From a virus (Duplodnaviria; Heunggongvirae; Uroviricota; Caudoviricetes), in IMG/VR virus record IMGVR_UViG_2875703104_000006: a DNA stretch of 37,461 bases. One strand, written 5' to 3'. The position numbers and the translations under genes were made by a program. The notes beneath the pieces are model-generated. The model made no database searches. It was not told the origin of the DNA and saw only the letters and a program-made list of their open reading frames with translations. Position 1 is the stretch's first letter, and each line of letters opens with the position of its first letter. Positions 13 through 31,898 of the stretch are shown piece after piece.

Positions 13-291
13 TCAGCTCCATTCCCGAAGCGGTGTTTCCAGCTCCACGACATAATCAGAGAATACAGAAACATCAAACAAGTCATCAAGAATGCGAATG
101 TTGACAAAATAACCNTCATTCCGGANACAGACAGGTTCTCCCTCTTCTGTTACCCCTGTTTCTGTGTAGGTGAAACCAATTTCATCNACTAACAGTTTAT
201 TCTGGAGGTCTTCATCNTCCNCCCAGNCAAGAGATGACAGGAAGGCCTTAAACTGCAGTTTGTCATGAAACTTCAAAGTTAAATCTTTCAT
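13..291 (-). CDS. Small protein translationally coupled to stf (ATGA overlap); possible tail fiber assembly/chaperone protein
   Basis: 92-aa ORF whose ATG (289-291) overlaps the stf stop (288-290); position matches tfa downstream of stf. No recognisable similarity to lambda Tfa; several N-derived X residues. Confidence 0.35.
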   Translation of the reverse strand: MKDLTLKFHDKLQFKAFLSSLXWXXDEDLQNKLLXDEIGFTYTETGVTEEGEPVCXRNXGYFVNIRILDDLFDVSVFSDYVVELETPLREWS

Positions 292-2498
292 ACGACCTCT
301 TTTAATTGCCTGTCATTTAATTCTTTATGCCATATGCGGAAATTGCGAATATGGCCAAACAGATGTCGTTCTCCAGTATTCGTCTGCCCTCCAAATCGGA
401 TATTTTTATCAGCGGTCACNCCATTATATTCACAATAAACTTCATTAACCGCTTTACCATTTGTCACCACATGAAAGTGACCATCAGCTTTTGCAATACA
501 TCCAAATGTGGTTTTCTCTGCAAATACATCTGTCGCTGCGCTATTAACATACNAGCCTGAAGGGTTTGACAGACTCATATATAACTTACCACTACCTCTG
601 TTGATTGCTGCAATTGCTGATTGCCCGGTATTGGCTGCTGCTATATCCCACACGCGGGGTGCGGCGTTTGGTGCAATATCCCAGTTTTTATGAATCTCAA
701 GTAAAAAAGTAAATGGTAACTTATAAAGATTATTTCTGGTGGGGATACTAACCAAATCACTGGCTCTTGTCGTTGCGCTGCCTCCTGAAATAATAAATGA
801 TGATACACACGGCCCATTCTCTACTTGTGGGGTGGCAAGATAAATATAGTCACCAGATACTGTTGCCCCACCCNGCTCAGGAGAATACTGTATCTGAGAG
901 CCTATTTTTAACTCACCATCAATTGCCTGAATCGTTGCCTCTGCAAAAATCCAGCCNGTGGTCTTATCCTTCCTGACTCGTGCCGTAATTCTGCCGGCAG
1001 CNCCACCTGTCATATTAATTTCAAGCGTTTGCGTATCAATGTACGCATCGCCAAGAAAAGTTGTTGCACTACCATCATACTTATCAAACCGTATACGTAA
1101 CCTTACCTGTCGTTCTGTTTTAAAACGGCATGAGGTTGTCACGTACTTGTTATCGCCTGAGACATCAACTGACTTTGTTGCAGCAATTGATGCCATATTA
1201 ATAGCCGAAGTTTGCCCAACCAGAGAATCGTTGCAGACAAACTTTCCATAAGTAAAACCAAAACTATCNGTCCCGGTTTCGGGCACATCCATGTTTGATG
1301 ACTTCCCCCAGCTGGCTGGACTTTCCGAATTGAGCATGTAGTTCGTTCTTTGTCCCTCAATAAGCAGGCCATCACACTCAAATCGCGGCTCATTAATTTC
1401 CGCCGTTTTCAGTTCGCCAGATTTGTTGATATATGTTGCCGTTGATGCGCGACTGAAATTAACCTGTTTATCACTGGCGACCTGAACCACATCGTCACCA
1501 ATAGCTATTTTTTTATAGCCCGGAGAAAAACCCGCAATCATATCCAGTGAATCGTTAAACGGTATCCACACATCAGGCAGCGGCGGCACTATATTCGCAT
1601 AGGGCTCTGCAGTCACTTCCGCTGCGNCTTCTGCGCGGTCTGCCGCCTTTTCAGCNCGTGTCGCTGCCGACAGAGCCTCATCCTTTTTCTGCCCGGCCTT
1701 TGTTGCGTCTGCTGCNGCCTCCCGCGCTTTTGTGGTGGCGACTCCGGCATTTTCAGCGGCTGACTCTGCATTACGGCGGGAAGCCTCTTCACTGTCTGCG
1801 GAGGCTTCTTCTGACGCACGGGCATTTGTCTCTGAACGTTCTGCCGCTGTTGCTGCGTTTTGTGCGGCTGTTTTTGAAGAAGCTGCCGCTTTCGCGCTGT
1901 TACCTGCATTCGTCTCTGATGNNNNNNNNNNNNNNNNNNNNNTGTCTGCGGAGGCTTCTTCTGACGCACGGGCATTTGTCTCTGAACGTTCTGCCGCTGT
2001 TGCTGCGTTTTGTGCGGCTGTTTTTGAAGAAGCTGCCGCTTTCGCGCTGTTACCTGCATTCGTCTCTGATGTTTTCGCCGCGTTCCTGGACGATGCCGCT
2101 GCTGTTTCTGATTTCTTTGCTGCCGCTGCGCTCTGAGAGGCGGCTTCAGCGTTGCGTGCCACATCCTCCACCATTACCTCAAAACGACGCAATGCCTCCG
2201 GCATGACATCATCTTCCGTCATGGCACCGAGAAAATCATTCAGCGTACCTGGTCTGGAACCTTCATAGACGGTAATGGTCCCGGCATGTGAAGGCGGAAA
2301 ACCTTCAACCAGCAGGGTGACGCTGTACTGGCCATACTCAACATCCATGCTGTAACGCCCGGCTTCATCCGGATTTTCAGAGGCCACCGTGTTCACCAGT
2401 ACCGTGGTGCTGTTACGCTTTGCTTTGAGCTGAATAGTACAGTTCTGTATTGGTTTTCCTGCACCGTCTTTCAGCACGCCTGAAATCTGTACTGCCAT
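288..2498 (-). CDS. stf: Side tail fiber protein (Stf-like); contains a duplication/gap artifact
   Basis: N-terminus MAVQISGVLKDGAGKPIQNCTIQLKA... matches the lambda Stf N-terminus; long Ala/Ser/Thr-rich repeat region; ATG at 2496-2498 preferred over the track's GTG at 2504. Internal 129-bp exact duplicate flanking N-run 1922-1942. Confidence 0.85.
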   Translation of the reverse strand: MAVQISGVLKDGAGKPIQNCTIQLKAKRNSTTVLVNTVASENPDEAGRYSMDVEYGQYSVTLLVEGFPPSHAGTITVYEGSRPGTLNDFLGAMTEDDVMPEALRRFEVMVEDVARNAEAASQSAAAAKKSETAAASSRNAAKTSETNAGNSAKAAASSKTAAQNAATAAERSETNARASEEASADXXXXXXXXSETNAGNSAKAAASSKTAAQNAATAAERSETNARASEEASADSEEASRRNAESAAENAGVATTKAREXAADATKAGQKKDEALSAATXAEKAADRAEXAAEVTAEPYANIVPPLPDVWIPFNDSLDMIAGFSPGYKKIAIGDDVVQVASDKQVNFSRASTATYINKSGELKTAEINEPRFECDGLLIEGQRTNYMLNSESPASWGKSSNMDVPETGXDSFGFTYGKFVCNDSLVGQTSAINMASIAATKSVDVSGDNKYVTTSCRFKTERQVRLRIRFDKYDGSATTFLGDAYIDTQTLEINMTGXAAGRITARVRKDKTXGWIFAEATIQAIDGELKIGSQIQYSPEXGGATVSGDYIYLATPQVENGPCVSSFIISGGSATTRASDLVSIPTRNNLYKLPFTFLLEIHKNWDIAPNAAPRVWDIAAANTGQSAIAAINRGSGKLYMSLSNPSGXYVNSAATDVFAEKTTFGCIAKADGHFHVVTNGKAVNEVYCEYNXVTADKNIRFGGQTNTGERHLFGHIRNFRIWHKELNDRQLKEVV

Positions 2499-2519
2499 AT
2501 TCACTCCACAAATAAAAAA

Positions 2520-2537
2520 GGCGCCATTTCTGGCGCC
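2520..2537 (-). terminator. Hairpin GGCGCCA-tttc-TGGCGCC followed by a T-run on the minus strand, just downstream of J
   Basis: 7-bp perfect stem, 4-nt loop, A-run on plus strand (T-run on minus). Confidence 0.5.
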
Positions 2538-2556
2538 CGTATTTGGGTTATAAAAT

Positions 2557-5500
2557 TCAACTGATACTGATACCGGCTGTTGATTTCTTCATCACGACAA
2601 CAAGAAGGTCGCTGATACTGGTCGTTGGCGTCCAGTTATTTGCACCATATGAAGAAACATTGAAAGTCAGGGTGACATGGCCGTGTCCCGCTGGCATATC
2701 AATGACGGATGAAAATACCCTGCTGACATCCGTCGCGGGTTGCTGAAAGATTTCCTGTCCGTTCTTCAGTACCTGCAGCTTACAGGTTGAATACCAGTAT
2801 GACTGTTGGTTGTTGCTGTTGAAGTTTTCATGCTTACCACCGCGAAACAGAACGGGTGGGATTACTATCTGACGGTCAAAAGCCTGGTCATCGTACACAG
2901 TGACCGTTATTGTACCGCTGGCATAACTGCCATTTCTCGGAAAGGCTTTTCCCACCGTTTTGACAATATCACCTTCAATCTGGTTGGCAGACAGTTTTCC
3001 CAGAATCCGACAGTTCTGGTTAATCGTGACATTATTGAGCGTCCCTGAGTTCGCATTCACGTTACCGCTGATATCGGCATTTTTCGCCGTCAACCGCCCG
3101 TCCGGTGTCAGGGAAAATACCGGCGGATTGCCGCCGCTGGTAATGGTGGGAGCCGTCAGATACTTCAGGAACACTTCGTTCATGAATATCTGGTTGCCCT
3201 GCGCCACAAACATCGGCGTTTCATTCCCGTTTGCCGGGTCAATAAACGCGATACGGTTAGCGGCAACCAGGAACTGGCTCAGTTTGCCTTCCTCCGTATC
3301 CTCCATGCTGAGGCCAATACCCGCGACATAATGCCTGCCGTCTTCGGTCTGCTCAATTTTGACGCCCCACATGGCATTCCATTTATCGTTGGCGTCTTTC
3401 CACTCTTTCGAAAACTCCTCCAGTTTGCTGGCGTTATCCTCCGTCAGCTCGACTTTTTCCAGCAGCTCCTTGCCGAGATGGGATTCAGTTATCTGGCCTT
3501 TGAAAAAATCCAGATAGCCGGAAGCATCATCGCTCGCCTGACCGACAGCCTCCACGAATGCCGATTTGCCAACAGTATTCACACTGCGGATATAAAAATA
3601 ATAATCATGGCCCGGCTTAATATTGATACTGGCAGCTATCCAGTACAGCGCCGTGCCAAGATAGCGGGCTGTGGTTTCAACCTGCCTGATATCGGTAATC
3701 CGCTTTTCCGAGAACCAGAATTCAAACTGTACCGTCGGGTCATAAACGGCAAGATGCGGCGTGGCGGTTATCTGAAAATAGCCCGGCGTCAGATCAATCC
3801 TCGACGGTGCTGCCGGTGCGGCAATCCGGAACGATACCGACGCCGGATCGCCCTGCTGCCCCCACGCATTTACCGCCCGGACTGTCAGCGTGTACCGCCC
3901 CAGCGCCAGTTGCGTGAAGCGGTATGTGGTTTCCGTCGTCCGGGCCGTGCTGACCAGCCGCTCACTGCCGTCATCCGCTGCCACGGTCAGGCGAAGCATA
4001 AAGCTCACCCCCTTCACCACCTTCGGCGTGTCCCAGCGCGCCAGCACCTGATANNNNNNNNNNNNNNNNNNNNNTGTGGTTTCCGTCGTCCGGGCCGTGC
4101 TGACCAGCCGCTCACTGCCGTCATCCGCTGCCACGGTCAGGCGAAGCATAAAGCTCACCCCCTTCACCACCTTCGGCGTGTCCCAGCGCGCCAGCACCTG
4201 ATATTCCCCGCTGTCTGCGGTGACTTCGGCAGTCAGGTGCTGCACCGCTGGCGGCGTGACACCATTCACCGTGCCGCTCTGGTCGCCGTCAAAGTGCGCC
4301 CCGTTATCCACGATGGCCTCTTTTTCCGGTACATGCTGCACGGCAGTGATGGCATACGTGCCGTCATCGTTCTCACNNNNNNNNNNNNNNNNNNNNNCTG
4401 GCGGCGTGACACCATTCACCGTGCCGCTCTGGTCGCCGTCAAAGTGCGCCCCGTTATCCACGATGGCCTCTTTTTCCGGTACATGCTGCACGGCAGTGAT
4501 GGCATACGTGCCGTCATCGTTCTCACGGATACTCACGCAGCGGAACAGGCGCTGGCGCAACGTCGGCAACTTCAGCCCCCACACGCTGTATCCGGCAACG
4601 CCGTCAGGAACCCGGCTCACTTTTACCTTCACGCCGTCGGTGACGGACTGGACCTCCACGCTGACCGGATTGCCGCTTCCGTCAACCAGGCTTATCAGCG
4701 TGGTACCGGAGGATGGCAGAGTGATTTCACGGTCGAGCGTCAGCGTCCGGGTCTGGCTGTTCACCGCCAGCACGCGCCCGCCGATGCTGATACCCGCATA
4801 GTCATCATCGCAGATTTCAATAACATCGCCCGGCACATGGCGAAGCCCTTCTGCGCCCACGCTGAAATCCACGGTCTGCGTTTCCAGCAGTTCCGTTTTA
4901 ATCAGCCACAGCCCGGCTCGGTGTGCCTGCCCCCGACTGGTACAGCCAAAGGCATCCATCTTCGTGACGTTACGACCGTAACGGGCAATGGCCTGCGTGT
5001 CCTCCACAAGCTCTGTCGCCGTCTCCCAGCCGTTATCCGGGTCAATCCAGTTCACCTCAACGGCATTATGGCGGTCCTTCAGGGCGCTGAAACTGTAGCG
5101 GAACGGCGCGCCATCATCCGGCATCACCACATTACTGCGGTTATAGGTCCACACCTTATCCGACGGCCGGTCCTGCACGAACGTCAGCGTCTGCCCGTTC
5201 CATACCGGCATACAGCGCATCGCCGAGCAGAAATCACTGAGAACATCCCACGCCTTACGCTGTGTGGTCAGCCAGGCATTACAGGTGATGCGCGGCTCCG
5301 TGCCACCAAAACCATCCGGCACCGACTGGTCGCAATTCTGGCCGATGACATACAGCGCCCATTTGTCCACATCCGCCGCACCAAGACGTTTCCCCATGCC
5401 GTAGCGCGGATGGGTCAGCATATCCCACAGACACCAGGCCATGTTGTTGCTGTATGCCGGTTTTAACGTTCCGTCCCAGATACCGCTGTATTGTCGCGTC

Positions 5501-6245
5501 TGCGGGTTATAGTTCGACGGCACCTGCAGAATGCGCCCGCGCAGATGATAATTACGACTCACCTGCTGACTGCCGAACTGCTCCGAGTCCACCTGCACAC
5601 CGACCAGTGCCGTGTTCGGGTAGCACTGTTTCATATCGATGATTTCGGTGTATGACGACCAGAGCGTTTTGTTCTGCAGCTGGTCTGTGGTGCTGTCCGG
5701 TGTCATCCTGCGCATCCGGATATTGAACGGGCGCGGAGGCAGGTTATCCACCACCACCGAGGCCAGATACTGCGAGGTGGTTTTGCCCTTAATGGTGATG
5801 TCTTTTTCCGTCACCCAGCCACCGTTACGCTGTATCTGAACCAGCAGGCGAACTTCCGACGGATTCCGGTCACCCTTTGAAGTGGTTTCCACCAGTGCCT
5901 GCACACCGAAGGTAAAACGCAGACGGTCGATGTTTGCCGACGTGATGGTGCGGGTGATCGGCGTGTCGTATTTCACTTCCGTACCCAGCACCGTCTCGGA
6001 GCCGGAGGATTCAAACCCCTCCGGCGGAGTCTGCTCCTGCTCACCTGCCCGGAACACCACCGTGACACCGGAGATATTGGTATTCCCCTCAGTGTCCAGC
6101 ACCGGCGTACTGTTCAGTAGCACGCTTTTTAACCCATCCACCGGACCTTCAATCGGCCCTTCGCTGATGGCATCGATCACACTCAGTAACTGCGTGGATT
6201 TCAGGTTGTCCTTCGCTTCGCGCGGGGTATGCCCCTTACTGCTGC
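2557..6245 (-). CDS. J: Host specificity / central tail fiber protein J (lambda gpJ-like), lacking its own start codon and read in frame from the upstream fragment
   Basis: Translation [42 protein letters not shown]... matches lambda J from about residue 4 through a long stretch; the reading frame carries two internal duplication artifacts around N-runs 4054-4074 and 4377-4397. Confidence 0.9.
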
Positions 6246-6447
6246 CTTTATACGTTTTACCGAGCATGATGTCTTTTCCTGTATGCCCGTGACATACAGT
6301 CCATACACCAACAATATCTTTGTATGGTATGTAGCTGACACCTTCCAGGCCATCGTCACCACTCGGACCAGTGATGAGCACAGACGCTATGGCAACAGCC
6401 CCACCACCAATAGCAGCAGCAATAGCCTTGCGTAATGATGGCGACAT
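6246..6447 (-). pseudogene. N-terminal 67 codons of a phage-21-type SAR endolysin (signal-anchor-release domain) fused in frame to J
   Basis: [67 protein letters not shown] resembles the R21 SAR endolysin N-terminus as recalled; frame continues directly into J at about 6245; start overlaps the pinholin stop (ATGA at 6447). Confidence 0.7.
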
Positions 6448-6662
6448 TATTCACCTCTCGCAGCCTTACGCTTATCTTCTTTAATCTTGAAATAAAGGTT
6501 TGTCAGATACGTCAGCAAGCCAAATACCAGACTACCCAGCACACCTATTGCCGCCCACTGTGAGGGCGTGACTTTATCGAGCAACTGTAAAAACCAGTAC
6601 CCGGCACTACCTGCTGAGGTGCCATAGGCGACACCCGTTGTTAACTTATCCATGGATTTCAT
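6447..6662 (-). CDS. S: Class II holin (phage 21 S-type pinholin) with dual-start motif MKSM
   Basis: 71-aa product [71 protein letters not shown]; two TM segments; Met1/Met4 dual start typical of the S21 holin/antiholin pair. Confidence 0.85.
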
Positions 6663-7401
6663 AACCCCACCCCGCAGACAAAGCGGGTGTAAATTAAGGG
6701 GATACTACGTATCGCAATAAAGGCAGAAACGTAACAGATTCGGAGTCAGTGAATAACTCAGGTATTGGGTTATCAGCTAATATCGAGACTCAAAAAATGG
6801 AAAAACCCGCTCGACGGCGGGTTTAAGCTGTGTGACGAAGTAACCACTCTTAACAGCATAACCAATTTTTTACGTACGTAAACTACTAAATGATATTTGT
6901 GAGAATGCCACCGAGTGTTCAAAACACNNNNNNNNNNNNNNNNNNNNNGGAAAAACCCGCTCGACGGCGGGTTTAAGCTGTGTGACGAAGTAACCACTCT
7001 TAACAGCATAACCAATTTTTTACGTACGTAAACTACTAAATGATATTTGTGAGAATGCCACCGAGTGTTCAAAACACCACCACAAATACATAAGAAAACT
7101 TCAACAAATAACCAATGAATAATTTCCGATGTTATTTTTAGTTTGTTTAAATTAAGTTAAAGAATTATAGGGCGCTTATAAATAAGTGCCATTAATATAA
7201 ATTAGCTAATAGATTTATTTTCGTTCAAACAAGAGCCATGAATAGGATTAGATAGAAAAGGTTCAGATAAAAATAGAGATCTACTTCACAAATTAAATGA
7301 GAAACTAAAACTTACATCTTGAAATAATCGCATTGATTAGATGAATATTTATCGCGCAGTGACATCATTTTTTAATAATAGTTCAAAAAAAAGGGCGTAC
7401 A

Positions 7402-7690
7402 ATGAAAAAATTAACAGTGGCAATTTCTGCTGTAGCTGCATCAGTACTGATGGCGATGTCTGCTCAGGCAGCTGAAATTTATAATAAAGACAGTAACAAG
7501 CTGGATCTATACGGGAAAGTTAATGCCAAGCACTACTTCTCCTCTAATGATGCAGATGATGGTGATACTACTTATGCCCGTCTTGGCTTCAAAGGTGAAA
7601 CCCAAATCAACGATCAACTGACTGGTTTCGGTCAGTGGGAATATGAATTCAAAGGCAACCGTGCTGAATCTCAAGGTTCTTCCAAAGANA
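7402..7690 (+). pseudogene. nmpC: 5' fragment (about 96 codons) of an NmpC/OmpC-family porin gene; truncated
   Basis: [95 protein letters not shown] matches the NmpC signal peptide and first beta strands; similarity ends near 7690 (N at 7688) and a stop follows at 7716. AT-rich promoter region upstream (7080-7400). Confidence 0.8.
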
Positions 7691-7997
7691 AGATAAATTG
7701 TCTCTTCACTCCCTGACAGGGGCGATTCTTTTCAAATCGCCATTTCGCCATGGCCTTCACCACTTCATCACGAAACAAATTATGAGGCTCTGAGCGGAGA
7801 AAAACGATCCGTGTCACAGTCCCATCAGCACCAATATCGAACTTAACCTCAACCAGCCCCTTGATATAATTTGCTGCAGCATATTCCGGATATCGTGGAT
7901 ACACCGTCACTAATTGCCGGGGCTCATCAGCTTTTTGCTGCGAGCATCCCACTGCCAGGACAGATAACAGAAAAAGTAGTAAAAGGCGTCTTTTCAT
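7671..7997 (-). CDS. Lipoprotein with TonB C-terminal-like domain
   Basis: Start [21 protein letters not shown] (lipobox LAVGC) with SD AGGA; body [56 protein letters not shown] resembles the TonB_C fold motif. 3' end overlaps the nmpC remnant antisense, so the C-terminus may be non-native. Confidence 0.5.
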
Positions 7998-8307
7998 TTT
8001 TATTCCTACGGGTCTTATTCTGACAATATATCCTGTGTTCCAGACTGCCACATCACCACATCCTGTGCCATTATCTGACTCACATTACATACATCGCATC
8101 GGGATACAGTAGTAGCACTTTCTGTAATACAGCTTCCTGTTTCTTCCACCATCGCACCGGGATAAACCCGCGAATCATTAACGCGGTAAAAACCCGGTGT
8201 GCATCGTTTTTAATTATCCCCGCACACTCGCGCAGAGGAGTCTCCCTGTCGGGCTGCGGTCTCTGTTAATGAGGGAATATAGCGACGATACGGCGCATCA
8301 ACAAAAC

Positions 8308-8781
8308 TTATTTCAGGCACTGAGTGCGGATATAGTCCTGTGCCCCTTCCAGTTGCTTGTGCATCGTCATCAGCCGCTCTCTGAGGGTGAAATAATCCCG
8401 TGTAACGGTGTCTGCCAGTTGGGGGCCGGTTGCATTATCCACGCCGGAGGTGGTGGGGGCTTCACGCACGGAGCCTGGACAGGTGGCGTTGATCCGCAGG
8501 CGCTTACGACCAGCGGCAACGTCAGCGCGAAGAGTTTCATTTTCAGCTCTCGCATCGGCTAATTCCCTCGAGTATTTTGCATCGAGCGCAGCAACATCGC
8601 GCTGGCGCACCTGCATATCAGTAATGGTTGCGTTCGCCAGCTTCAGTTCACTGGCTTTGTTATCGCGCTGCGCTTTGTAGGTAATCGCGTTATCACGGTA
8701 ATGGTCTGTTGCCATCCACAGCGCACCACAGGCCACCAGCAGAATAACGATAAACGCGGAAAGCATTCGGTTTATGTTCAC
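8308..8781 (-). CDS. Rz: Spanin inner-membrane subunit Rz (i-spanin)
   Basis: N-terminal TM segment then [15 protein letters not shown]...[15 protein letters not shown]...[25 protein letters not shown], closely resembling lambda Rz. Confidence 0.85.
8370..8555 (-). CDS. Rz1: Spanin outer-membrane lipoprotein Rz1 (o-spanin), embedded in the +1 frame of Rz
   Basis: [56 protein letters not shown]: lipobox, proline-rich, close to lambda Rz1; start within the listed ORF is uncertain. Confidence 0.8.
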
Positions 8782-8909
8782 CCCAGCAACCCCGACGAAG
8801 ACAACATCATCCAGGCCATGGAAAGAAAAAGAGCAACCAGCATTAGTGAAAATGAAATGCCGACAATTACACAGAGGATCTTCGCCAGCGTTATGAGTTT
8901 GTCTGACAT
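8778..8909 (-). CDS. Small hydrophobic ORF between endolysin and Rz (43 aa)
   Basis: [43 protein letters not shown]; one TM segment; stop overlaps the Rz start (ATGA). Could be noncoding. Confidence 0.3.
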
Positions 8910-9262
8910 GCTTAATCCTCCCTTCACGATTTCAACGCAATGACCAGTTTTGCCAGCCCATACAGCATCGGGGACACAGCAACACCGACCGCCACCCACT
9001 TAATGGCAAAAGCCAGTGCTCTGCTGATGTCATCAGTTACAGGCGCTTTCAGTTCAAGGCCATTTTTCATAGTCAACCTCAACAGAATTCGTTTACACTT
9101 CGCCATGTTCTCCCTTGCCTTACTCAAGGTCAGAAACACAAAACCTCGCTTGGTGCCAACAAACGGGGTTTTTACTTTTATTCACTTACGTTTCGCCAGT
9201 TCGCAGGATTTCGTGTTATCCGCCCGCGTGGCCATTCCTCATTTTTCAGCAAAATATTCTGC

Positions 9263-9796
9263 TTATCTGTCGATACCCCAGCACGCCAGCGCGCTCTCCT
9301 GGTCACGACGGGATACCTGACCGTAACAGTTGTTTGAACGAATACGGCAGTCTCTGCCACCGTCCTTAATCCACCAGCGAATCGCTTCGCAGGCACCTTT
9401 TCGATCACCAGCATTAATTCGTCTGTAAAACGTCGACGGGAAACACTTACCGGGACCAATGTTGTACGGACAGAATGACGCGATCCCCGCTTTCTGGGGT
9501 TCGGTCAGCGGCACTCTGATGTTTTTCTCCACCCACGCCAGCGCTTTATCACGCTCAATGGCGTTAACCTGGTCGCATTTTTCCTTCGACAACTTCATGC
9601 CCGGAACGACAGGTTTGCCATCCACCATGATGGCACCACGGCAGATGGTCCAGATACCTGCACCATCACGGTATGCCGTGGTGTGGTTGCCTTCCTTTTC
9701 ATCCAGAAACTGGTCGAGAATGTCAGGCGCAGGCGCACCAGCGGCAATCAGCGCCAGAACGGCAGCCGACAGGCCGTATTTGATTTTGGTGTTCAT
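9263..9796 (-). CDS. R: Phage lysozyme (GH24-like endolysin) with Gly/Ala-rich N-terminal signal-anchor (SAR-type)
   Basis: 177 aa; N-terminus KYGLSAAVLALIAAGAPAP is a weakly hydrophobic SAR-like segment; body resembles lambdoid prophage lysozymes. Confidence 0.85.
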   Translation of the reverse strand: MNTKIKYGLSAAVLALIAAGAPAPDILDQFLDEKEGNHTTAYRDGAGIWTICRGAIMVDGKPVVPGMKLSKEKCDQVNAIERDKALAWVEKNIRVPLTEPQKAGIASFCPYNIGPGKCFPSTFYRRINAGDRKGACEAIRWWIKDGGRDCRIRSNNCYGQVSRRDQESALACWGIDR

Positions 9797-11128: not shown

Positions 11129-11264
11129 AATTTCTTACCGTTATGGTTGACAATGAGAACTGTTTTCATTTAGAAATGATTGATGTCGAAAGCATCTTTT
11201 CTTTACATTCTCCATTGGGATTACCTCCGCCAGCTTCCATTCCTGCCGCTGGCGGCTTTTTTTA

Positions 11265-11532
11265 TCATGCCGCGATGTCCGCGTTGTTCACTTCCACCTT
11301 CACACTGTCAATCAGCAGCGTATATGTCGCCGCCTTTGATATGCCTGTCAGTTGCAGTTTGTCCGCCGCCCCTGATGCCGGAGACCGCCGCAATGGCCTG
11401 CATCAGGGTATAAGGCGTGATGGCCACCGGACTGCCAAATGGCTGCCACCCCTCCTTCAGTTTTTGTGTCAGTCGTTTCGCAAGGTCTGACGGCGATGCC
11501 GCCCTGACAACATCATAGTGTTTAAATGCCAT
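11265..11532 (-). pseudogene. Internally deleted remnant of the NanS-p-like esterase gene (first about 45 codons joined out of frame to the last about 40 codons)
   Basis: 11410-11532 matches the 5' end of the intact gene at about 16250-16375; 11265-11390 matches its 3' end at 14264-14390. Confidence 0.7.
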
Positions 11533-11792
11533 GGTTCTTTCCACCATCTGAAAAATAATTCTTTAAAATACCTGACATGTAATACAGAAAAAACACAAAA
11601 CCATACCTTAAATAAAAACCTCATCATCAAGCAGATATGCATGGATAAACTACAAGACGAGATATAAACCACCCTGCATTTAAATAAACAATAAACAACA
11701 TCAGAAAAATAATTCTGCTCTATGGTTTACATTCAAAAATATCATTTATACTTTTCAGAACATCACCAGCAAGACATAAACAAGGAAACTAA

Positions 11793-12128
11793 ATGAAGTG
11801 GATTGTGATTGATACAGTTATCCAGCCATCATGCGGAATATCTTTTTCAGTCATATGGAGTAAAATAAAATTAATAATCTGGTATCAATCGGATGCTTTC
11901 TTACCTCCTGAAAGTATATTTACACTGACTCACACAGGTATCATGCTCAATAACAAAGTGCTACCTGTAACCATTTACAACGTAGCACCATTCAATAAAA
12001 CATTCTGGAATTTAATCAAAAACAGCCAGGAATGTCCTACAAATACAGATAACGTATTGAATGAATGCTTTAATAACCGTTGCACTCTGCAAATATGTCC
12101 TTATGGACTAAAACAACAAAGTCCATAA
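11793..12128 (+). CDS. Hypothetical ORF in a strongly AT-rich island (111 aa)
   Basis: Only plus-strand ORF in this segment; atypical composition; no motif recognised. Confidence 0.25.
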
Positions 12129-12159
12129 GGAGTTTACTCACATCTGACAAAATCAATAT

Positions 12160-12420
12160 AAACAGCCCCTCCGGAGAGGGGCTGGAGAGTGGCGCTATGT
12201 GCCATTGCATGGTGCCGGGTGCCTCCCGGTGAATTCAGTACCAGCACCTGAATCCGCGATTATCCCATATACCTACTCGCTGATTGCCCCTCCGCACAGG
12301 GGGATTCACCATGCCAGTTTCTTTTAACAAACTCCCCGCAAACCAGACAACAGTCAACCGCCTGAATTGTGAAGTATTTAAAAATTTCTCCCGCTAACTG
12401 ATACCCGGCTAACAGTCTGG
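12160..12420. repeat. Copy 1 of a roughly 250-bp repeat family containing the perfect palindrome AGCCCCTC-cgga-GAGGGGCT
   Basis: Near-identical to 17082-17335 and related to 16595-16800. Confidence 0.6.
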
Positions 12421-12575
12421 CGTTTTCTTTTTCAGCAACGGGAAAGCAACAACCACCACACCCGCCACCAGCACACCGTCAGCCAGCACTGACATTATCC
12501 GGCTGCTGCAATGCCACTCACAAAAACAGTAAGCAATCACTTTTTACCGTAACAAGTGATAATCCAGATATGTAT

Positions 12576-12929
12576 CTACCCCAGATGAGTAATCCGAAGT
12601 TCATCCATACCACAGGTACTGGCTATTCTGTTGTACTCCTGAACAAGAGCAAATAATTCTGAATTAGCAACCATGAACTCATCGCAAACCCTCTGTATAG
12701 CATCACTATTCAGAATAATAACGTCTCTTCCCGAAAGACGATCAGGAGTACAGAACAAAACTGTCAAACGGCTGAAGGCCTTTGCTCGTCCTGCATTGAC
12801 TATATCAATACGCTGCCTAAGGATGAAACACCCCGACGCCTCATCAATATTCACTCTACCCACACCATATGAATGATAAATATTTAATGCTGAAAAAACC
12901 ATTAGACCGTATAACAAACACTCAATCAA
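12576..12929 (-). CDS. Hypothetical 117-aa ORF at the position equivalent to TerB (and to stx in Stx phages) in the decayed module copy
   Basis: ORF with hydrophobic N-terminus MIECLLYGLMVFSALNIY; lower GC than surroundings; no obvious SD; coding status uncertain. Confidence 0.3.
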   Translation of the reverse strand: MIECLLYGLMVFSALNIYHSYGVGRVNIDEASGCFILRQRIDIVNAGRAKAFSRLTVLFCTPDRLSGRDVIILNSDAIQRVCDEFMVANSELFALVQEYNRIASTCGMDELRITHLG

Positions 12930-13042
12930 TACTTAACAGAACTTTTATTTTTGACAAACATAAAATATTTTCAACAATATCCTGAGCCAGGTATATTTCA
13001 GTATAAGGCTCTGCCGGAAGGAATCTGGAAGAATGAATATAG

Positions 13043-13116
13043 CGCGCTGTACTGGATTCGAACCAGTGACCGATTGCTTAGAAGGCAATTGCTCTGTCCG
13101 GCTGAGCTAACAACGC
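13043..13116 (-). tRNA. argO: tRNA-Arg (anticodon UCU)
   Basis: Cloverleaf readable by eye: 7-bp acceptor stem GCGTTGT/ACAGCGC, anticodon loop CTTCTAA, T-loop GGTTCGAATCC; end coordinates approximate. Confidence 0.8.
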
Positions 13117-13129
13117 TGAATACCGATAA

Positions 13130-13210
13130 TGGACCGCCATCGGGGACCCGCCCCCGCACCAACAACCCTGTTATCGTGTCGTCTGCTCTTCCTGATAAGC
13201 TAATGGCGGT
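13130..13210 (-). pseudogene. Degenerate tRNA-like sequence at the position of tRNA-Arg(UCG) in the other cluster
   Basis: Acceptor ends (accgccat...atggcggtcca) conserved with 18195-18271 but D-arm and T-loop disrupted. Confidence 0.35.
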
Positions 13211-13216
13211 TTGTGA

Positions 13217-13292
13217 TGGTGGCCCTTGCTGGATTTGAACCAGCGACCTGGCGATTATGAGTCGCTCGCTCTCACCACTGAGCTAAAGGGCC
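13217..13292 (-). tRNA. ileZ: tRNA with anticodon CAU (Met, or Ile2 if lysidine-modified; ileZ-like)
   Basis: GGCCCTTTAGCTCAGTGGTGAGAGC...anticodon loop CTCATAA...GGTTCAAATCC...GGGCCACCA with encoded CCA. Confidence 0.8.
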
Positions 13293-13337
13293 GGGAGCAG
13301 AATAATAACGGTCCGTAATTAATTCCGCAATAAAAAA

Positions 13338-13435
13338 CCCGCTCGGCGGCGGGTTGTAGAAACTCTTCTAACGCCAGGCATAAAAAGCCCATTGTTATGA
13401 CGAATTTACCACAGATTCCGGAAAAATCAACCTTG
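13338..13435 (-). promoter_or_regulatory. Late promoter PR'-like (-35 TTGATT, -10 TAAATT), Q-utilisation region and tR'-like terminator downstream of Q copy A
   Basis: Minus-strand sequence TTGATTtttccggaatctgtggTAAATTcgtcataacaatgggc resembles lambda PR' and its early transcribed region; followed by hairpin CCCGC-n6-GCGGG plus T-run at 13338-13353. Confidence 0.55.
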
Positions 13436-14267
13436 TTACCTAGTTACCTTTTTTAACTGCCGCTCAGCCCATGCTTCTTCAATATCAAACCGGGTCACCA
13501 GCGCATCATAGAATTTCTTAACTGTTTTTTCCCATGACGCGCGTGTTATCTGGTTTGTCACCTCGCATATAGCATTAAATGCCTCCGTTGATGGTAGTCT
13601 TTCATAGCCACGACCACCACAACGCTGGCAGTCTCTGATAACAGGCATACCACGTTTTACCGACTCTTCACGATGAATGGCGACACCACGCCCACGGCAA
13701 TCCTTACAGGCGGTGGAAACCTCACCCTTTCCGCCACACTCCGGACAGGCAACTTTTACCACCTCCCTGACTTTTTTCCATACCACGTTTTACCGACTCT
13801 TCACGATGAATGGCGACACCACGCCCACGGCAATCCTTACAGGCGGTGGAAACCTCACCCTTTCCGCCACACTCCGGACAGGCAACTTTTACCACCTCCC
13901 TGACTTTTTTCCATTCTTCCCAGTAAGACGAATACACACCTTTCGTACACTTTGCCCATACCGGCGGCTTACCATCCGGATACTGGACCTTGTTTGTAAA
14001 AACTACGCTTTCAATAAATTTTTCCCCATAGCAACAAGGGCACTGCTTTTTACTCGCTGCGCTGCGGGCATAATCCTCAAAAGCGTACGAAGCCATAATG
14101 CGCATCACTACCGGTTTTATTTCTGCCGGAAGTTTTCTCAACGCCGCCACACGATCGCACCGACTGAGTGCATAATCTGCCAGTAATTCTGTTGCCCGCG
14201 CCCTGTCATTCATACTGATGCCCATTTTCCCCAGTCCATTCCTGCCGCTGGCGGCTTTTTTTATCAT
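13436..14267 (-). pseudogene. Q: Antiterminator Q, copy A: native N-terminus replaced and frame broken by a 133-bp exact tandem duplication
   Basis: Q-like sequence with zinc-binding CPECGGKG...CKDCRGRG; duplicated 133-bp units at about 13648-13780 and 13781-13913; 5' end abuts the nanS-p 3' end. Confidence 0.75.
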
Positions 14268-16375
14268 GCCGCGATGTCCGCGTTGTTCACTTCCACCTTC
14301 ACACTGTCAATCAGCAGCGTATATGTCGCCGCCTTTGATATGCCTGTCAGTTGCAGTTTGTCCGCCGCCCCTGATGCCGGAGATTTCACCAGTGTGAACG
14401 GCGTCCCCCGTTTCTCATCCAGTACCGGCGTCACCTGAATGCTGTTGTTTCCGGCAAACTCAAAAGCCAGTGTGTGCCATCCGTTATCAAAGACCCCGAA
14501 CGTNTCCAGCTTCGCATTCGGCTTCTTGTGGTGCATCGCGTTCAGGTTCGTCGCATCCGTCTGCAGNAAGAAGGACATCAGCATGTCGTTGCCTTCCTCT
14601 GCCAGCGTCACTCCCTCCGGCAGGGACGACAACTGCCAGTAAATGCCCAGGGCAAACTGATTCGGCACCAGTGAACCCGGCAACTTAAACCGTACGCTCA
14701 CACGTCCCCCCTTCTTCAGTAACTCCACTCCCTGTCCGGCTGCATCATGCTCCAGAAACCAGATGTGGTTTTCCGGTTTATTCAGTTGCAGGGCCTTACC
14801 TCCCGTAGCCCCCGCATCACTGACCACCGCTTCAGCAATGTTTTTGTTAACATTGTCTCCGCTCGCCGGTTTGTGATAATAGCGCCAGCCCTGTGATGCC
14901 AGGTCTTCGCCGGACGCCAGCAGACTCATCAGGGTTCGGTTACTGACCGGGGCTTCCGGCTCTCTCTCCGTACCTTCACCGGAAGGTCCGGTGGGCTTCA
15001 CCGTATCAGGCTGTTTTCCGGTAATGAATTCAGCGTTTCTCCCGGCATGCACAAGAATCGCCGTTGCCAGACGGTCGGAAATAATCCCACGACGTGCCCA
15101 TGATCCAAAATGCGTTTTACGGTCNGCCGTCGTCCAGGTTTTGGCGTCCGTTCGACCACCGGCTCCGTAATACCCAATATCCGCAACATCCGGATCTTCT
15201 GACGGCTCGTTGGTACCCACATTTCGCCCGTTTTCATCCGTCATAAACGGCACAAAGAAGATTTTTTTTGCGGATTTCGTCTTGTATGCACCATACACCG
15301 CATCGTATTGCGAAGAATAAGTCTGCTTCCAGTAGTAGGTCGTGTCGCCACAAATCCAGGGAACCGATGACGGAGAGCCCCCGAGACACTGACCTCCGAA
15401 TTCCGACAGGTCAGAACGATATTTTTCCACCATGGAATCAAACAGCCCCGGCTGNGTGGCGTATGCACCCTGTTTCAAATCAAACTCGCCCTGCATCCAG
15501 ACCACTGCAAGCAGAATATTTTTAGGGTTGGCCTTCAGTGCGGCCTGAGTACGGGTAAGCAGGTCCTTGTACAGTGGCTTATCTACACCCCAGCGTGCCG
15601 AGGTCTCGCTTGCGCCGGTGGATTCGCTGAAGGTACCTTCATCGCCCGCCAAAAATGCAGAACCACCACGGCAGCACGGAACCAGAAGAATACCGGCATT
15701 CGCCGGAATAAACGGCAACAATTTCTTCGCGATATGTAATCCCTGCCCCACGCATCCATACTGAGCTGCNCTGGCTTTCGGGTGTGAAAACTTACTCAAA
15801 TCCTGAACATCATGCAGGCAGTGGTCCGCAGGAATAATGTCATTGTAGTTACAGNACGCACCACCCGGCGTGACAGTGCTGCGACGCGCCAGCTGTTTAA
15901 TACGCGGGTCCGGACGGTCATATGTCTCCGGCAGCGGAAGCCCTTCACCATACGCCATACCGTTTGACTGCCCGGCCAGGGCAACAACAAAGTAATACTC
16001 CGGGTTGCTGGTGGTGCTGATAACTGCGCCTTCTCCATCCGACGGCTTCACCACCACAGGTGTGGTGACATCACCTTCCGCCGCAATGGCCTGCATCAGG
16101 GTATAAGGCGTGATGGCCACCGGACTGCCAAATGGCTGCCACCCCTCCTTCAGTTTTTGTGTCAGTCGTTTCGCAAGGTCTGACGGCGATGCCGCCCTGA
16201 CAACATCATAGTGTTTNNNNNNNNNNNNNNNNNNNNNGGCCTGCATCAGGGTATAAGGCGTGATGGCCACCGGACTGCCAAATGGCTGCCACCCCTCCTT
16301 CAGTTTTTGTGTCAGTCGTTTCGCAAGGTCTGACGGCGATGCCGCCCTGACAACATCATAGTGTTTAAATGCCAT
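14264..16375 (-). CDS. nanS: NanS-p-like sialate O-acetylesterase (DUF1737 N-terminal domain plus SASA-type esterase domain); contains a duplication/gap artifact
   Basis: N-terminus MAFKHYDVVRAASPSDLAKRLTQKLKEGWQPFGSPVAITPY and GQSNGMAYGEG motif; 129-bp duplicate around N-run 16217-16237 plus single Ns. Confidence 0.75.
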   Translation of the reverse strand: MAFKHYDVVRAASPSDLAKRLTQKLKEGWQPFGSPVAITPYTLMQAXXXXXXXKHYDVVRAASPSDLAKRLTQKLKEGWQPFGSPVAITPYTLMQAIAAEGDVTTPVVVKPSDGEGAVISTTSNPEYYFVVALAGQSNGMAYGEGLPLPETYDRPDPRIKQLARRSTVTPGGAXCNYNDIIPADHCLHDVQDLSKFSHPKAXAAQYGCVGQGLHIAKKLLPFIPANAGILLVPCCRGGSAFLAGDEGTFSESTGASETSARWGVDKPLYKDLLTRTQAALKANPKNILLAVVWMQGEFDLKQGAYAXQPGLFDSMVEKYRSDLSEFGGQCLGGSPSSVPWICGDTTYYWKQTYSSQYDAVYGAYKTKSAKKIFFVPFMTDENGRNVGTNEPSEDPDVADIGYYGAGGRTDAKTWTTXDRKTHFGSWARRGIISDRLATAILVHAGRNAEFITGKQPDTVKPTGPSGEGTEREPEAPVSNRTLMSLLASGEDLASQGWRYYHKPASGDNVNKNIAEAVVSDAGATGGKALQLNKPENHIWFLEHDAAGQGVELLKKGGRVSVRFKLPGSLVPNQFALGIYWQLSSLPEGVTLAEEGNDMLMSFXLQTDATNLNAMHHKKPNAKLXTFGVFDNGWHTLAFEFAGNNSIQVTPVLDEKRGTPFTLVKSPASGAADKLQLTGISKAATYTLLIDSVKVEVNNADIAA

Positions 16376-31674: not shown

Positions 31675-31898
31675 ACTCACCTCTTCTGATACCGAATCTT
31701 TTTACTCACAANGGTGGATATACACTGCCATCACTGTTGCAATTGGCTGCCCTGACACCCTGGCAATTGTTCGCCACTTAGGGTCATTTGGCATGTCATG
31801 CCATAATCTGAGCCAGGCGTTAGCCATACTCACCTCTTCTGATACCGAATCTTTTTACTCACAAATTGCCGGAAGTGATCCGGTATGAATATTGCGAG

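Follow-up and report, generated by a model that had tools for sequence, protein, structure and literature searches.

A SAR endolysin-tail tip J fusion frame in Escherichia coli as a probable deletion scar of a domesticated lambdoid prophage

The window analyzed here (IMG/VR virus record IMGVR_UViG_2875703104_000006, 37,461 nt in full) carries a pinholin gene followed directly by a long reading frame that starts like a signal-anchor-release (SAR) endolysin and continues as the lambda tail protein J. This raises the question of whether such a fusion exists in the cell, how it was formed and whether it does anything for its host. The features that bear on this question are given below in window coordinates.

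13-291, minus strand: small hypothetical gene, downstream of J
288-2504, minus strand: side-tail-fibre-like gene, downstream of J
2557-6447, minus strand: fusion ORF, endolysin N-terminus plus J (PDB and Pfam matches)
2557..6250, minus strand: lambda-type tip attachment protein J, codon 3 to stop (8IYK, Pfam)
6249..6250, minus strand: deletion junction, 2-nt TA microhomology common to both parents (three-way alignments)
6249..6447, minus strand: SAR endolysin 5' fragment, phage-21/RrrD-type, codons 1-66 (3HDE/4ZPU, Pfam, nucleotide alignments)
6447..6662, minus strand: essD, intact S21-type class II pinholin (Pfam PF04971 and annotation)
6803..6824, minus strand: intrinsic-terminator-like hairpin in the essD leader, at a tR'-like position (terminator scan, consensus match only)
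7164..7192, minus strand: sigma-70 promoter-like site, ATGGCA-17-TATAAT (promoter scan, L001 19659-19687)
7402..7689, plus strand: 5' part of a prophage-borne OmpC/NmpC-family porin gene, ended by the contig end (N at 7689)

An S21-type pinholin of 71 aa had been called at 6447-6662 and this call held. EssD matched PF04971 (Bacteriophage P21 holin S; Phage_holin_2_1) with an E value of 2e-35, has the length of about 71 aa typical of the family and starts MKSMDK, giving the dual start motif M1/M4. Wherever the locus annotation was read the product was WP_000839596.1, 'phage lysis protein EssD'. The essD stop codon and the ATG of the fusion overlap by 1 nt (TAATG). The terminator-like hairpin was found on the closed MCJCHV-1 sequence (L001 19877-19898) and then mapped onto the window, where a second copy at 6953-6974 is a scaffold duplication. 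The promoter-like site lies upstream of this hairpin and essD and is possibly the late promoter, in a scan that returned fewer sites than shuffled sequence did.

The fusion reads as 1296 aa in the window, a length inflated by two scaffold-gap artefacts. The window is a draft scaffold whose gaps, runs of 21 N, each have a duplicated overlap of 129 bp at their flanks. Two of these gaps (4054-4074 and 4377-4397) fall inside the fusion ORF and lengthen it by 2 x 150 nt. Without them the gene measures 3591 nt and encodes 1196 aa (RefSeq WP_001556898.1), a length that corresponds to about 130 kDa. Residues 1-68 matched the phage-21 lysozyme (3HDE) and RrrD (4ZPU) over residues 1-68 with an E value of about 1e-35, and residues 67-1195 matched residues 3-1131 of lambda J (8IYK) with an E value of 0. 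The SAR transmembrane segment is retained at aa 8-26 with a mean Kyte-Doolittle hydropathy of 2.11, and 11 of the 20 residues from 8 to 27 are Gly or Ala, as in the weakly hydrophobic, Gly/Ala-rich N-terminal segment of this class of T4-lysozyme-like glycosidases. The triad that defines SAR endolysins, E-X8-D-X5-T (PMC9239132), is present as E35-X8-D44-X5-T50. The catalytic domain is incomplete: the PDB match ends at residue 68 of 165, the Phage_lysozyme profile (125 positions) was matched only at positions 3-34 by the endolysin fragment and 3-45 by the whole fusion, and about 100 remaining residues of the lysozyme fold are missing. The J part carries all six J Pfam domains in collinear order (FNIII-A_GpJ, Phage-tail_3, Ig_J, Ig_J_second, Phage_Tail_Tip and Ig_GpJ_C), including the C-terminal receptor-binding domain. 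The ATG and ribosome-binding site of J are deleted, and tail genes I, K, L, M and H, among others, are absent upstream of it.

The crossover was placed by three-way alignment of the chimera, the endolysin parent and the J parent, with the endolysin part aligned at the nucleotide level to K-12 rrrD and to the lysozyme gene of E. coli 82.0311. The endolysin parent supplies nt 1-199 and the J parent continues from its nt 6 (K3). The initial annotation had recognized both the SAR endolysin N-terminus and the in-frame J part, but its count of 67 endolysin codons is corrected to 66 plus the first base of codon 67, and its J start at residue 4, near 6245, to K3 at 6249/6250. The GGTAAA microhomology it proposed did not survive alignment. 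Both parents contain this hexamer, but at positions 6 nt out of register with each other, which rules it out as the crossover; the bases in common are TA only. With a prior of 1 in 3, preservation of the reading frame is unremarkable by itself.

A junction-spanning 50-mer was found, identical, in 80 records from 79 complete E. coli genomes, and the junction had no match in GTDB species representatives or phage records. Carriers include the pandemic ST1193 clone and a few other E. coli lineages. Two matches (pMY504-2 and 23AR0151) were considered as a plasmid location, which was rejected on inspection of pMY504-2, a linear 238-kb record carrying the chromosomal genes bluR, ycgZ and ariR. The exact fusion protein was present on at least 1000 contigs. 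As ST1193 is a young clone (PMC11488385), such a number is expected under neutrality; it does not exclude a function. Our literature search found no paper on WP_001556898.1, nor on DLP12 essD with rrrD. All inspected copies belonged to a degraded lambdoid prophage integrated at icd and shared the gene order quuD - porin - essD - fusion - stf - sitDCBA - icd'. This prophage is bordered by an intact icd at one end and, beyond sitA, by a partial icd fragment at the other, so that part of the target is duplicated as at a phage attachment site. In closed genomes sitDCBA comes after the side-tail-fibre-like and small hypothetical genes. The cargo of this prophage consists of sitABCD, the porin and an inverse autotransporter. 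In ST1193 the remnant has decayed further, with int and the replication gene frameshifted and with insertions of IS30, IS3 and ISEc21.

A near-intact prophage at the same icd/sitABCD locus was found in E. coli 82.0311 (NZ_CP122454.1). In this genome the two breakpoints lie 17,092 bp apart, with genes for lysozyme, Rz, terminase, portal, capsid, tail tube, tape measure, L, K, I and J in this segment. The two elements share integration site and cargo, have identical WP accessions for QuuD, the porin and EssD as well as identical YlcG and YbcN proteins, and their J genes are 95% identical over most of their length. They differ in that 82.0311 keeps the 17.1 kb between the breakpoints and has a frameshifted lysozyme gene, and the 5 mismatches within the 199-nt endolysin part indicate that it is not the exact parent. 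MCJCHV-1 lacks the lysis and particle genes that 82.0311 retains, and the earlier statement that everything between lysis and J is missing was borne out by this comparison.

The locus also resembles DLP12 of E. coli K-12, with the same order of ybcN, ninE, ybcO, rusA, ylcG, quuD, an opposite-strand porin and essD, and with the next gene beginning at the essD stop (quuD - nmpC - essD - rrrD - rzpD in DLP12). The fusion aligns with rrrD over its first 199 nt, with 177 of the first 200 positions identical. Unlike the fusion element, DLP12 keeps a complete rrrD (165 aa) and rzpD/rzoD, while the fusion element has no Rz/Rz1, carries sitABCD and is inserted at icd, the site occupied by e14 in K-12. 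With phage 21 (S21/R21; 3HDE/3HDF) it shares the pinholin family and dual start as well as the SAR segment and triad of R21 residues 1-68, but no spanin genes follow and catalytic-domain residues about 67-165 are missing, without which we expect no muralytic activity. The remainder is collinear with residues 3-1131 of lambda gpJ, the tip attachment protein or central tail fibre (8IYK), but carries a 66-aa membrane-targeting extension in place of its own start and ribosome-binding site, and the genes that precede J in lambda (H, M, L, K, I) are absent from the element.

Together these data suggest that the fusion is very probably the scar of an illegitimate-recombination deletion in a domesticated, DLP12-like lambdoid prophage. 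Of the two origins first proposed, one was that a cryptic prophage had lost a large segment and thereby gained a chimeric SAR-J frame; the 79 closed genomes and 82.0311 support it. A single deletion of about 17 kb at the 2-nt TA would have taken out the last two-thirds of the SAR-endolysin gene together with Rz/Rz1, terminase, every head gene and the tail genes as far as I, and would have brought codon 66 of the endolysin and codon 3 of J together, in frame by chance. The prophage would thereby have lost lysis and particle production, locking in its cargo genes. Should a late transcript arise, translation of the fusion would begin at the endolysin start and be coupled to that of essD. The SAR segment of the product would probably enter the inner membrane; the product could not degrade murein since most of the lysozyme fold is missing. 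We infer that the 1196-aa protein arose as a by-product and serves no selected role, and that the J body survives chiefly as a substrate with which other resident lambdoid prophages recombine.

The other origin first proposed was that assembly had joined two prophage regions through a repeat and that the cell contains no fusion. The scaffold gives some reason for this concern, with its duplicated-overlap gaps and, at N 7689, a join of contigs across which 56 kb of the closed MCJCHV-1 chromosome are missing. However, the junction lies within the N-free stretch 4398-6927, is 100% identical in 79 complete genomes from many laboratories and platforms, and shares only 2 nt between its parents, which leaves no repeat available for collapse. 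Comparison with a complete genome, suggested with the initial annotation, showed the window copy to be 100% identical to the MCJCHV-1 gene outside the gap artefacts. The junction is real DNA and an assembly error is virtually ruled out. A recurrent hotspot, at which the identical rrrD-J junction arose independently several times, was considered because unrelated strains carry the junction on J haplotypes that differ by about 3%; the J body also contains a further mosaic tract. Exact recurrence at 2 nt of microhomology is very improbable, and the first ~260 nt of the fusion are identical in six genomes, as is, across haplotypes, the upstream essD-porin-quuD block. Divergence begins abruptly about 60 nt into J, and A3 and O170:H18 differ in one internal tract only, which is a pattern of recombination. 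We therefore consider repeated origin very unlikely; the identical start and the divergent J bodies argue for one old deletion and later recombination within J. Between ST1193 and A3 we counted 87 synonymous and 23 non-synonymous differences, but rejected them as a dN/dS test of selection, as recombination had brought them in from functional J alleles.

The deletion scar could still have been put to use, as a new gene whose SAR segment exports or anchors a J derivative in the envelope and which is kept for host benefit. Such a protein would be co-expressed with the pinholin under QuuD and might, for example, interfere with incoming lambdoid phages or act on the envelope or biofilm. Envelope and biofilm effects have been proposed for the DLP12 lysis genes. 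The 1196-aa frame is open in most carriers and translationally coupled to an intact essD, quuD and the leader are intact, the SAR segment is intact, and the fusion has spread over several lineages. Against this, the 3.6-kb frame is broken in at least 4 of the 80 records, among the matches listed: O170:H18 carries the nonsense change W392stop (TGG/TAC to TAG at codon 392), and an IS4 element interrupts the fusion in FDAARGOS_536, 21AR0173 and AREA_492. These independent breaks in two lineages argue against selection for the fusion protein. SCU-387/AHB7 has in addition lost a codon, in frame, within the SAR segment. An open join has a one-in-three chance of arising anyway, and no such junction occurs in the representative genomes of other species or in phage records. 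Lambda J is a trimer whose folding normally takes place in the cytoplasm together with partner proteins, and the genes for these partners are deleted in the remnant. A selected function thus appears improbable, and we found no evidence for a new biological mechanism. Expression itself is possible because essD, quuD and the promoter/terminator-like leader are all intact in the remnant, but we see only a slim chance that the fusion is made from the late operon with the pinholin and has some effect. Were this so, a membrane-tethered or periplasmic J derivative could alter the envelope or hinder incoming lambdoid phages. Alternatively, initiation at Met62, which has AGGA 9 nt upstream, would yield a near-native cytoplasmic J (MLGKTYK followed by J from G4) that could enter the tails of co-resident lambdoid prophages and shift their host range.

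As a deletion scar, the fusion looks like an ordinary relic of prophage decay, although a real and widespread one. Its RefSeq name is 'tail tip protein J' only, and the endolysin-derived signal-anchor on this 'J' could mislead predictions of localisation or vaccine targets. The exact junction provides a clean, datable marker of the domesticated sitABCD prophage in ST1193 and a few other lineages. It suggests that a prophage with virulence cargo was disarmed in a single step by the loss of both lysis and morphogenesis, and that the tail-tip gene stranded in the remnant keeps recombining with the J genes of other prophages.

The lysis region of the window carried an essD gene followed directly by a long ORF of mixed origin:

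6447-6662, minus strand, essD, S21-type pinholin of 71 aa (Pfam PF04971 'Bacteriophage P21 holin S', E=2e-35)
2557-6447, minus strand, SAR endolysin-J fusion ORF (PDB and Pfam matches)

The pinholin had the M1/M4 dual start and the fusion ATG lay on the stop of the 71-aa ORF (one-base overlap, TAATG). Fusion residues 1-68 aligned with residues 1-68 of both the phage-21 SAR endolysin (PDB 3HDE) and K-12 RrrD (4ZPU), each with an E of about 1e-35, and fusion residues 67-1195 with residues 3-1131 of the lambda tip attachment protein J (8IYK, E=0). Pfam detected six of the six J domains but only the first 34-45 of the 125 lysozyme profile positions. These matches confirmed the initial annotation of a pinholin and a SAR endolysin start fused in frame to J, and on this evidence the long ORF is a chimera of endolysin start and J. 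The SAR segment (aa 8-26) and the triad E35-X8-D44-X5-T50 (E-X8-D-X5-T motif as defined in PMC9239132) were kept; the element has lost the spanins and every J partner, and the lysozyme fold is short of about 100 residues. Judged by sequence, the fusion does not qualify as an endolysin, its catalytic domain being incomplete, or as a working J gene, since it lacks both a start of its own and a tail module.

Three-way nucleotide alignments of the fusion, against K-12 rrrD and lambda J and against a closer parent pair, assigned nt 1-199 of the gene to the endolysin and started the J share at J nt 6. The crossover fell at window 6249-6250, where only the bases TA are common to both parents, and the protein consists of endolysin residues 1-66 followed by J from K3. 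The junction had been placed near 6245, which was roughly right, but 67 endolysin codons and entry at J residue 4 were not. The proposed GGTAAA microhomology was rejected as the crossover: each parent contains it, but the two copies are offset by 6 nt. Because the shared sequence is only 2 nt, the alignments identify the event as illegitimate recombination, neither homologous nor site-specific. The prior for an in-frame join is one in three.

The window is a draft scaffold with scattered single Ns and five 21-N gaps, each followed by an exact 129-bp repeat of the preceding sequence:

1922-1942, 21-N gap
4054-4074, 21-N gap
4377-4397, 21-N gap
6928-6948, 21-N gap
16217-16237, 21-N gap

A single N at 31712 was followed by a 152-bp repeat. 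All of these are contig overlaps left unmerged, and they place artificial duplications in ORFs; two gaps within the fusion ORF (2 x 50 aa) swelled 1196 aa to 1296 aa. With gaps removed, the window was 100% identical to the closed ST1193 E. coli genome MCJCHV-1, and this complete genome has the same fusion as a 3591-nt gene annotated 'phage attachment tail tip protein J' (WP_001556898.1). Gap duplication also put a repeat into the tail-fibre gene. At 15 positions the side-tail-fibre region (1-1716 and 288-2504, minus strand) is ambiguous (single N), and it contains an Ala/Ser-rich repeat (…SETNAGNSAKAAASSKTAAQNAATAAERSETNARASEEASAD…). Closed genomes carried a truncated N-terminal pseudogene and a 'head spike fiber domain' gene (1254 or 1725 nt) there, and the single 738-aa ORF of the window may be an assembly product.

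Contig concatenation does occur in this scaffold. A single N at 7689 truncates the prophage porin gene, and across it the window jumps 56 kb in MCJCHV-1 (2,804,852 to 2,860,890) into a different prophage; no homology was found at the join, and it is therefore a reference-ordered contig concatenation, with rearrangement excluded. The initial annotation had allowed that the endolysin-J junction arose likewise, by assembly joining of two prophage repeats, or by a large deletion in a cryptic prophage. A 751-nt junction-spanning query was 100% identical in dozens of complete genomes. A 50-mer centred on the junction (25 nt to either side), which neither parent alone can match, had exactly 80 hits, every one at 100%, and these came from 79 of the 5426 complete E. 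coli genomes. Two matches were labelled plasmids (pMY504-2 and 23AR0151), of which pMY504-2 was on inspection a mislabelled linear chromosome fragment. Identity in closed genomes therefore refutes an assembly join at this junction; the 79 genomes and a relative prophage in E. coli 82.0311 support the deletion. The junction had no match in GTDB species representatives or phage records and no mention of WP_001556898.1 was found in the literature, and the junction appears undescribed so far. Fusion ORFs created by deletions are a familiar trait of cryptic prophages.

The second prophage starts at window 7671-9796 (minus strand) and continues onward, with a small TonB-family gene and the following lysis genes:

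8308-8781, minus strand, Rz/Rz1-type lysis gene
8370-8555, minus strand, Rz/Rz1-type lysis gene
9263-9796, minus strand, complete 177-aa lysozyme

Its MCJCHV-1 counterpart adds a class II holin, IraM, tRNA-Arg/Ile, an antiterminator and hokD; the window lacks or has collapsed about 2 kb of this region.

In every carrier whose flanks were read out to the icd fragment (MCJCHV-1, O170:H18, A3 and MY504) the fusion sits in a lambdoid, DLP12-like remnant at the icd site, ordered ybcN-ninE-ybcO-rusA-ylcG-quuD, porin (opposite strand), essD, fusion, side-tail-fibre genes, sitDCBA and partial icd. The upstream half resembles DLP12, the lysis genes are of phage 21 type and the tail gene of lambda J type; the whole element is a defective prophage. 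The near-intact prophage at the same site in 82.0311 (NZ_CP122454.1) encodes identical QuuD, porin and EssD proteins but, unlike the remnant, has between essD and J lysozyme, Rz, small and large terminase, portal, protease, decoration, capsid, tail tube, G/T, tape measure, M, L, K and I. The breakpoints lie 17,092 bp apart there, and this interval is lost here, in agreement with the initial annotation that the genes between lysis and J are missing. Its endolysin part shows 5 mismatches over 199 nt and its J is about 95% identical, which marks this prophage as a relative rather than the exact parent. The icd site of 82.0311 (locus L005, 1-7017) is occupied by a tandem pair of prophages: first an e14/P2-like element with baseplate genes, pinE, tfaE and an mcrA fragment, ending at one partial icd, then the sit-carrying lambdoid prophage, ending at a second. 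The interval from replication gene P to the nin region of the remnant contains a large inverse-autotransporter gene, a variable cargo adhesin, adjoining an alpha/beta hydrolase gene:

L001 (MCJCHV-1) 11226-14777, inverse-autotransporter gene, 3552 nt
L007 (another carrier) 2086-6351, inverse-autotransporter gene, 4266 nt
L008 (another carrier) 2442-6350, inverse-autotransporter gene, 3909 nt

Eight carriers are ST1193 (O75:H5, fimH64; PMC11488385); others included an O170:H18 strain and isolates from an Australian bat and wallaby. Among aligned copies (six over the first 1800 nt, five over the remainder) the first ~260 nt, junction included, were identical, and the J body beyond comprised two haplotypes that diverge by about 3% (110 differing codons, most of them synonymous). 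The only difference between A3 and O170:H18 was an internal tract of 1 kb. These patterns are most simply read as one old deletion, after which the J body recombined with other J genes from resident lambdoid prophages. Repeated origin of the same junction is very unlikely, as exact recurrence would need a repeat crossover at a 2-nt microhomology. The replication genes are intact in A3 and O170:H18, whereas ST1193 has frameshifts in the integrase and replication gene and carries IS30, IS3 and ISEc21 in place of the immunity region; the deletion is therefore older than the ST1193 decay.

Several observations counted against selection on the fusion protein: a stop at codon 392 in O170:H18, an IS4 insertion common to FDAARGOS_536, 21AR0173 and AREA_492, loss of one Ala codon from the SAR segment in SCU-387 and AHB7, R505W in AF16, and the PGAP label of incomplete 'glycoside hydrolase family protein' on the 5' part of broken-frame copies, itself an independent recognition of the chimera. 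Codon 392 (columns 1174-1176 of the fusion-gene alignment) had three states: the ST1193 type reads TGG (Trp), A3 reads TAC (Tyr) and O170:H18 has the stop TAG. Most carriers keep an open frame, and at least 1000 contigs encode the exact protein, as expected without selection because ST1193 is a young, heavily sequenced clone.

In the leader, consensus matches alone point to a promoter-like site and a terminator-like hairpin. If the fusion is transcribed, under QuuD-dependent late transcription, its translation would begin at the endolysin start and its SAR segment would send it to the inner membrane, where it is predicted to have neither muralytic activity nor a tail to join; it might be tethered, degraded or jam export. 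Intact pinholin expressed alone would depolarise the membrane without lysis, as established for phage 21. The element would be unable to lyse the cell or form particles, which would stabilise its cargo of sitABCD, porin and inverse autotransporter. Only demonstrated expression and a phenotype would raise the fusion above low interest; the junction, an instance of a known event type, is useful as a lineage marker and an annotation caveat.
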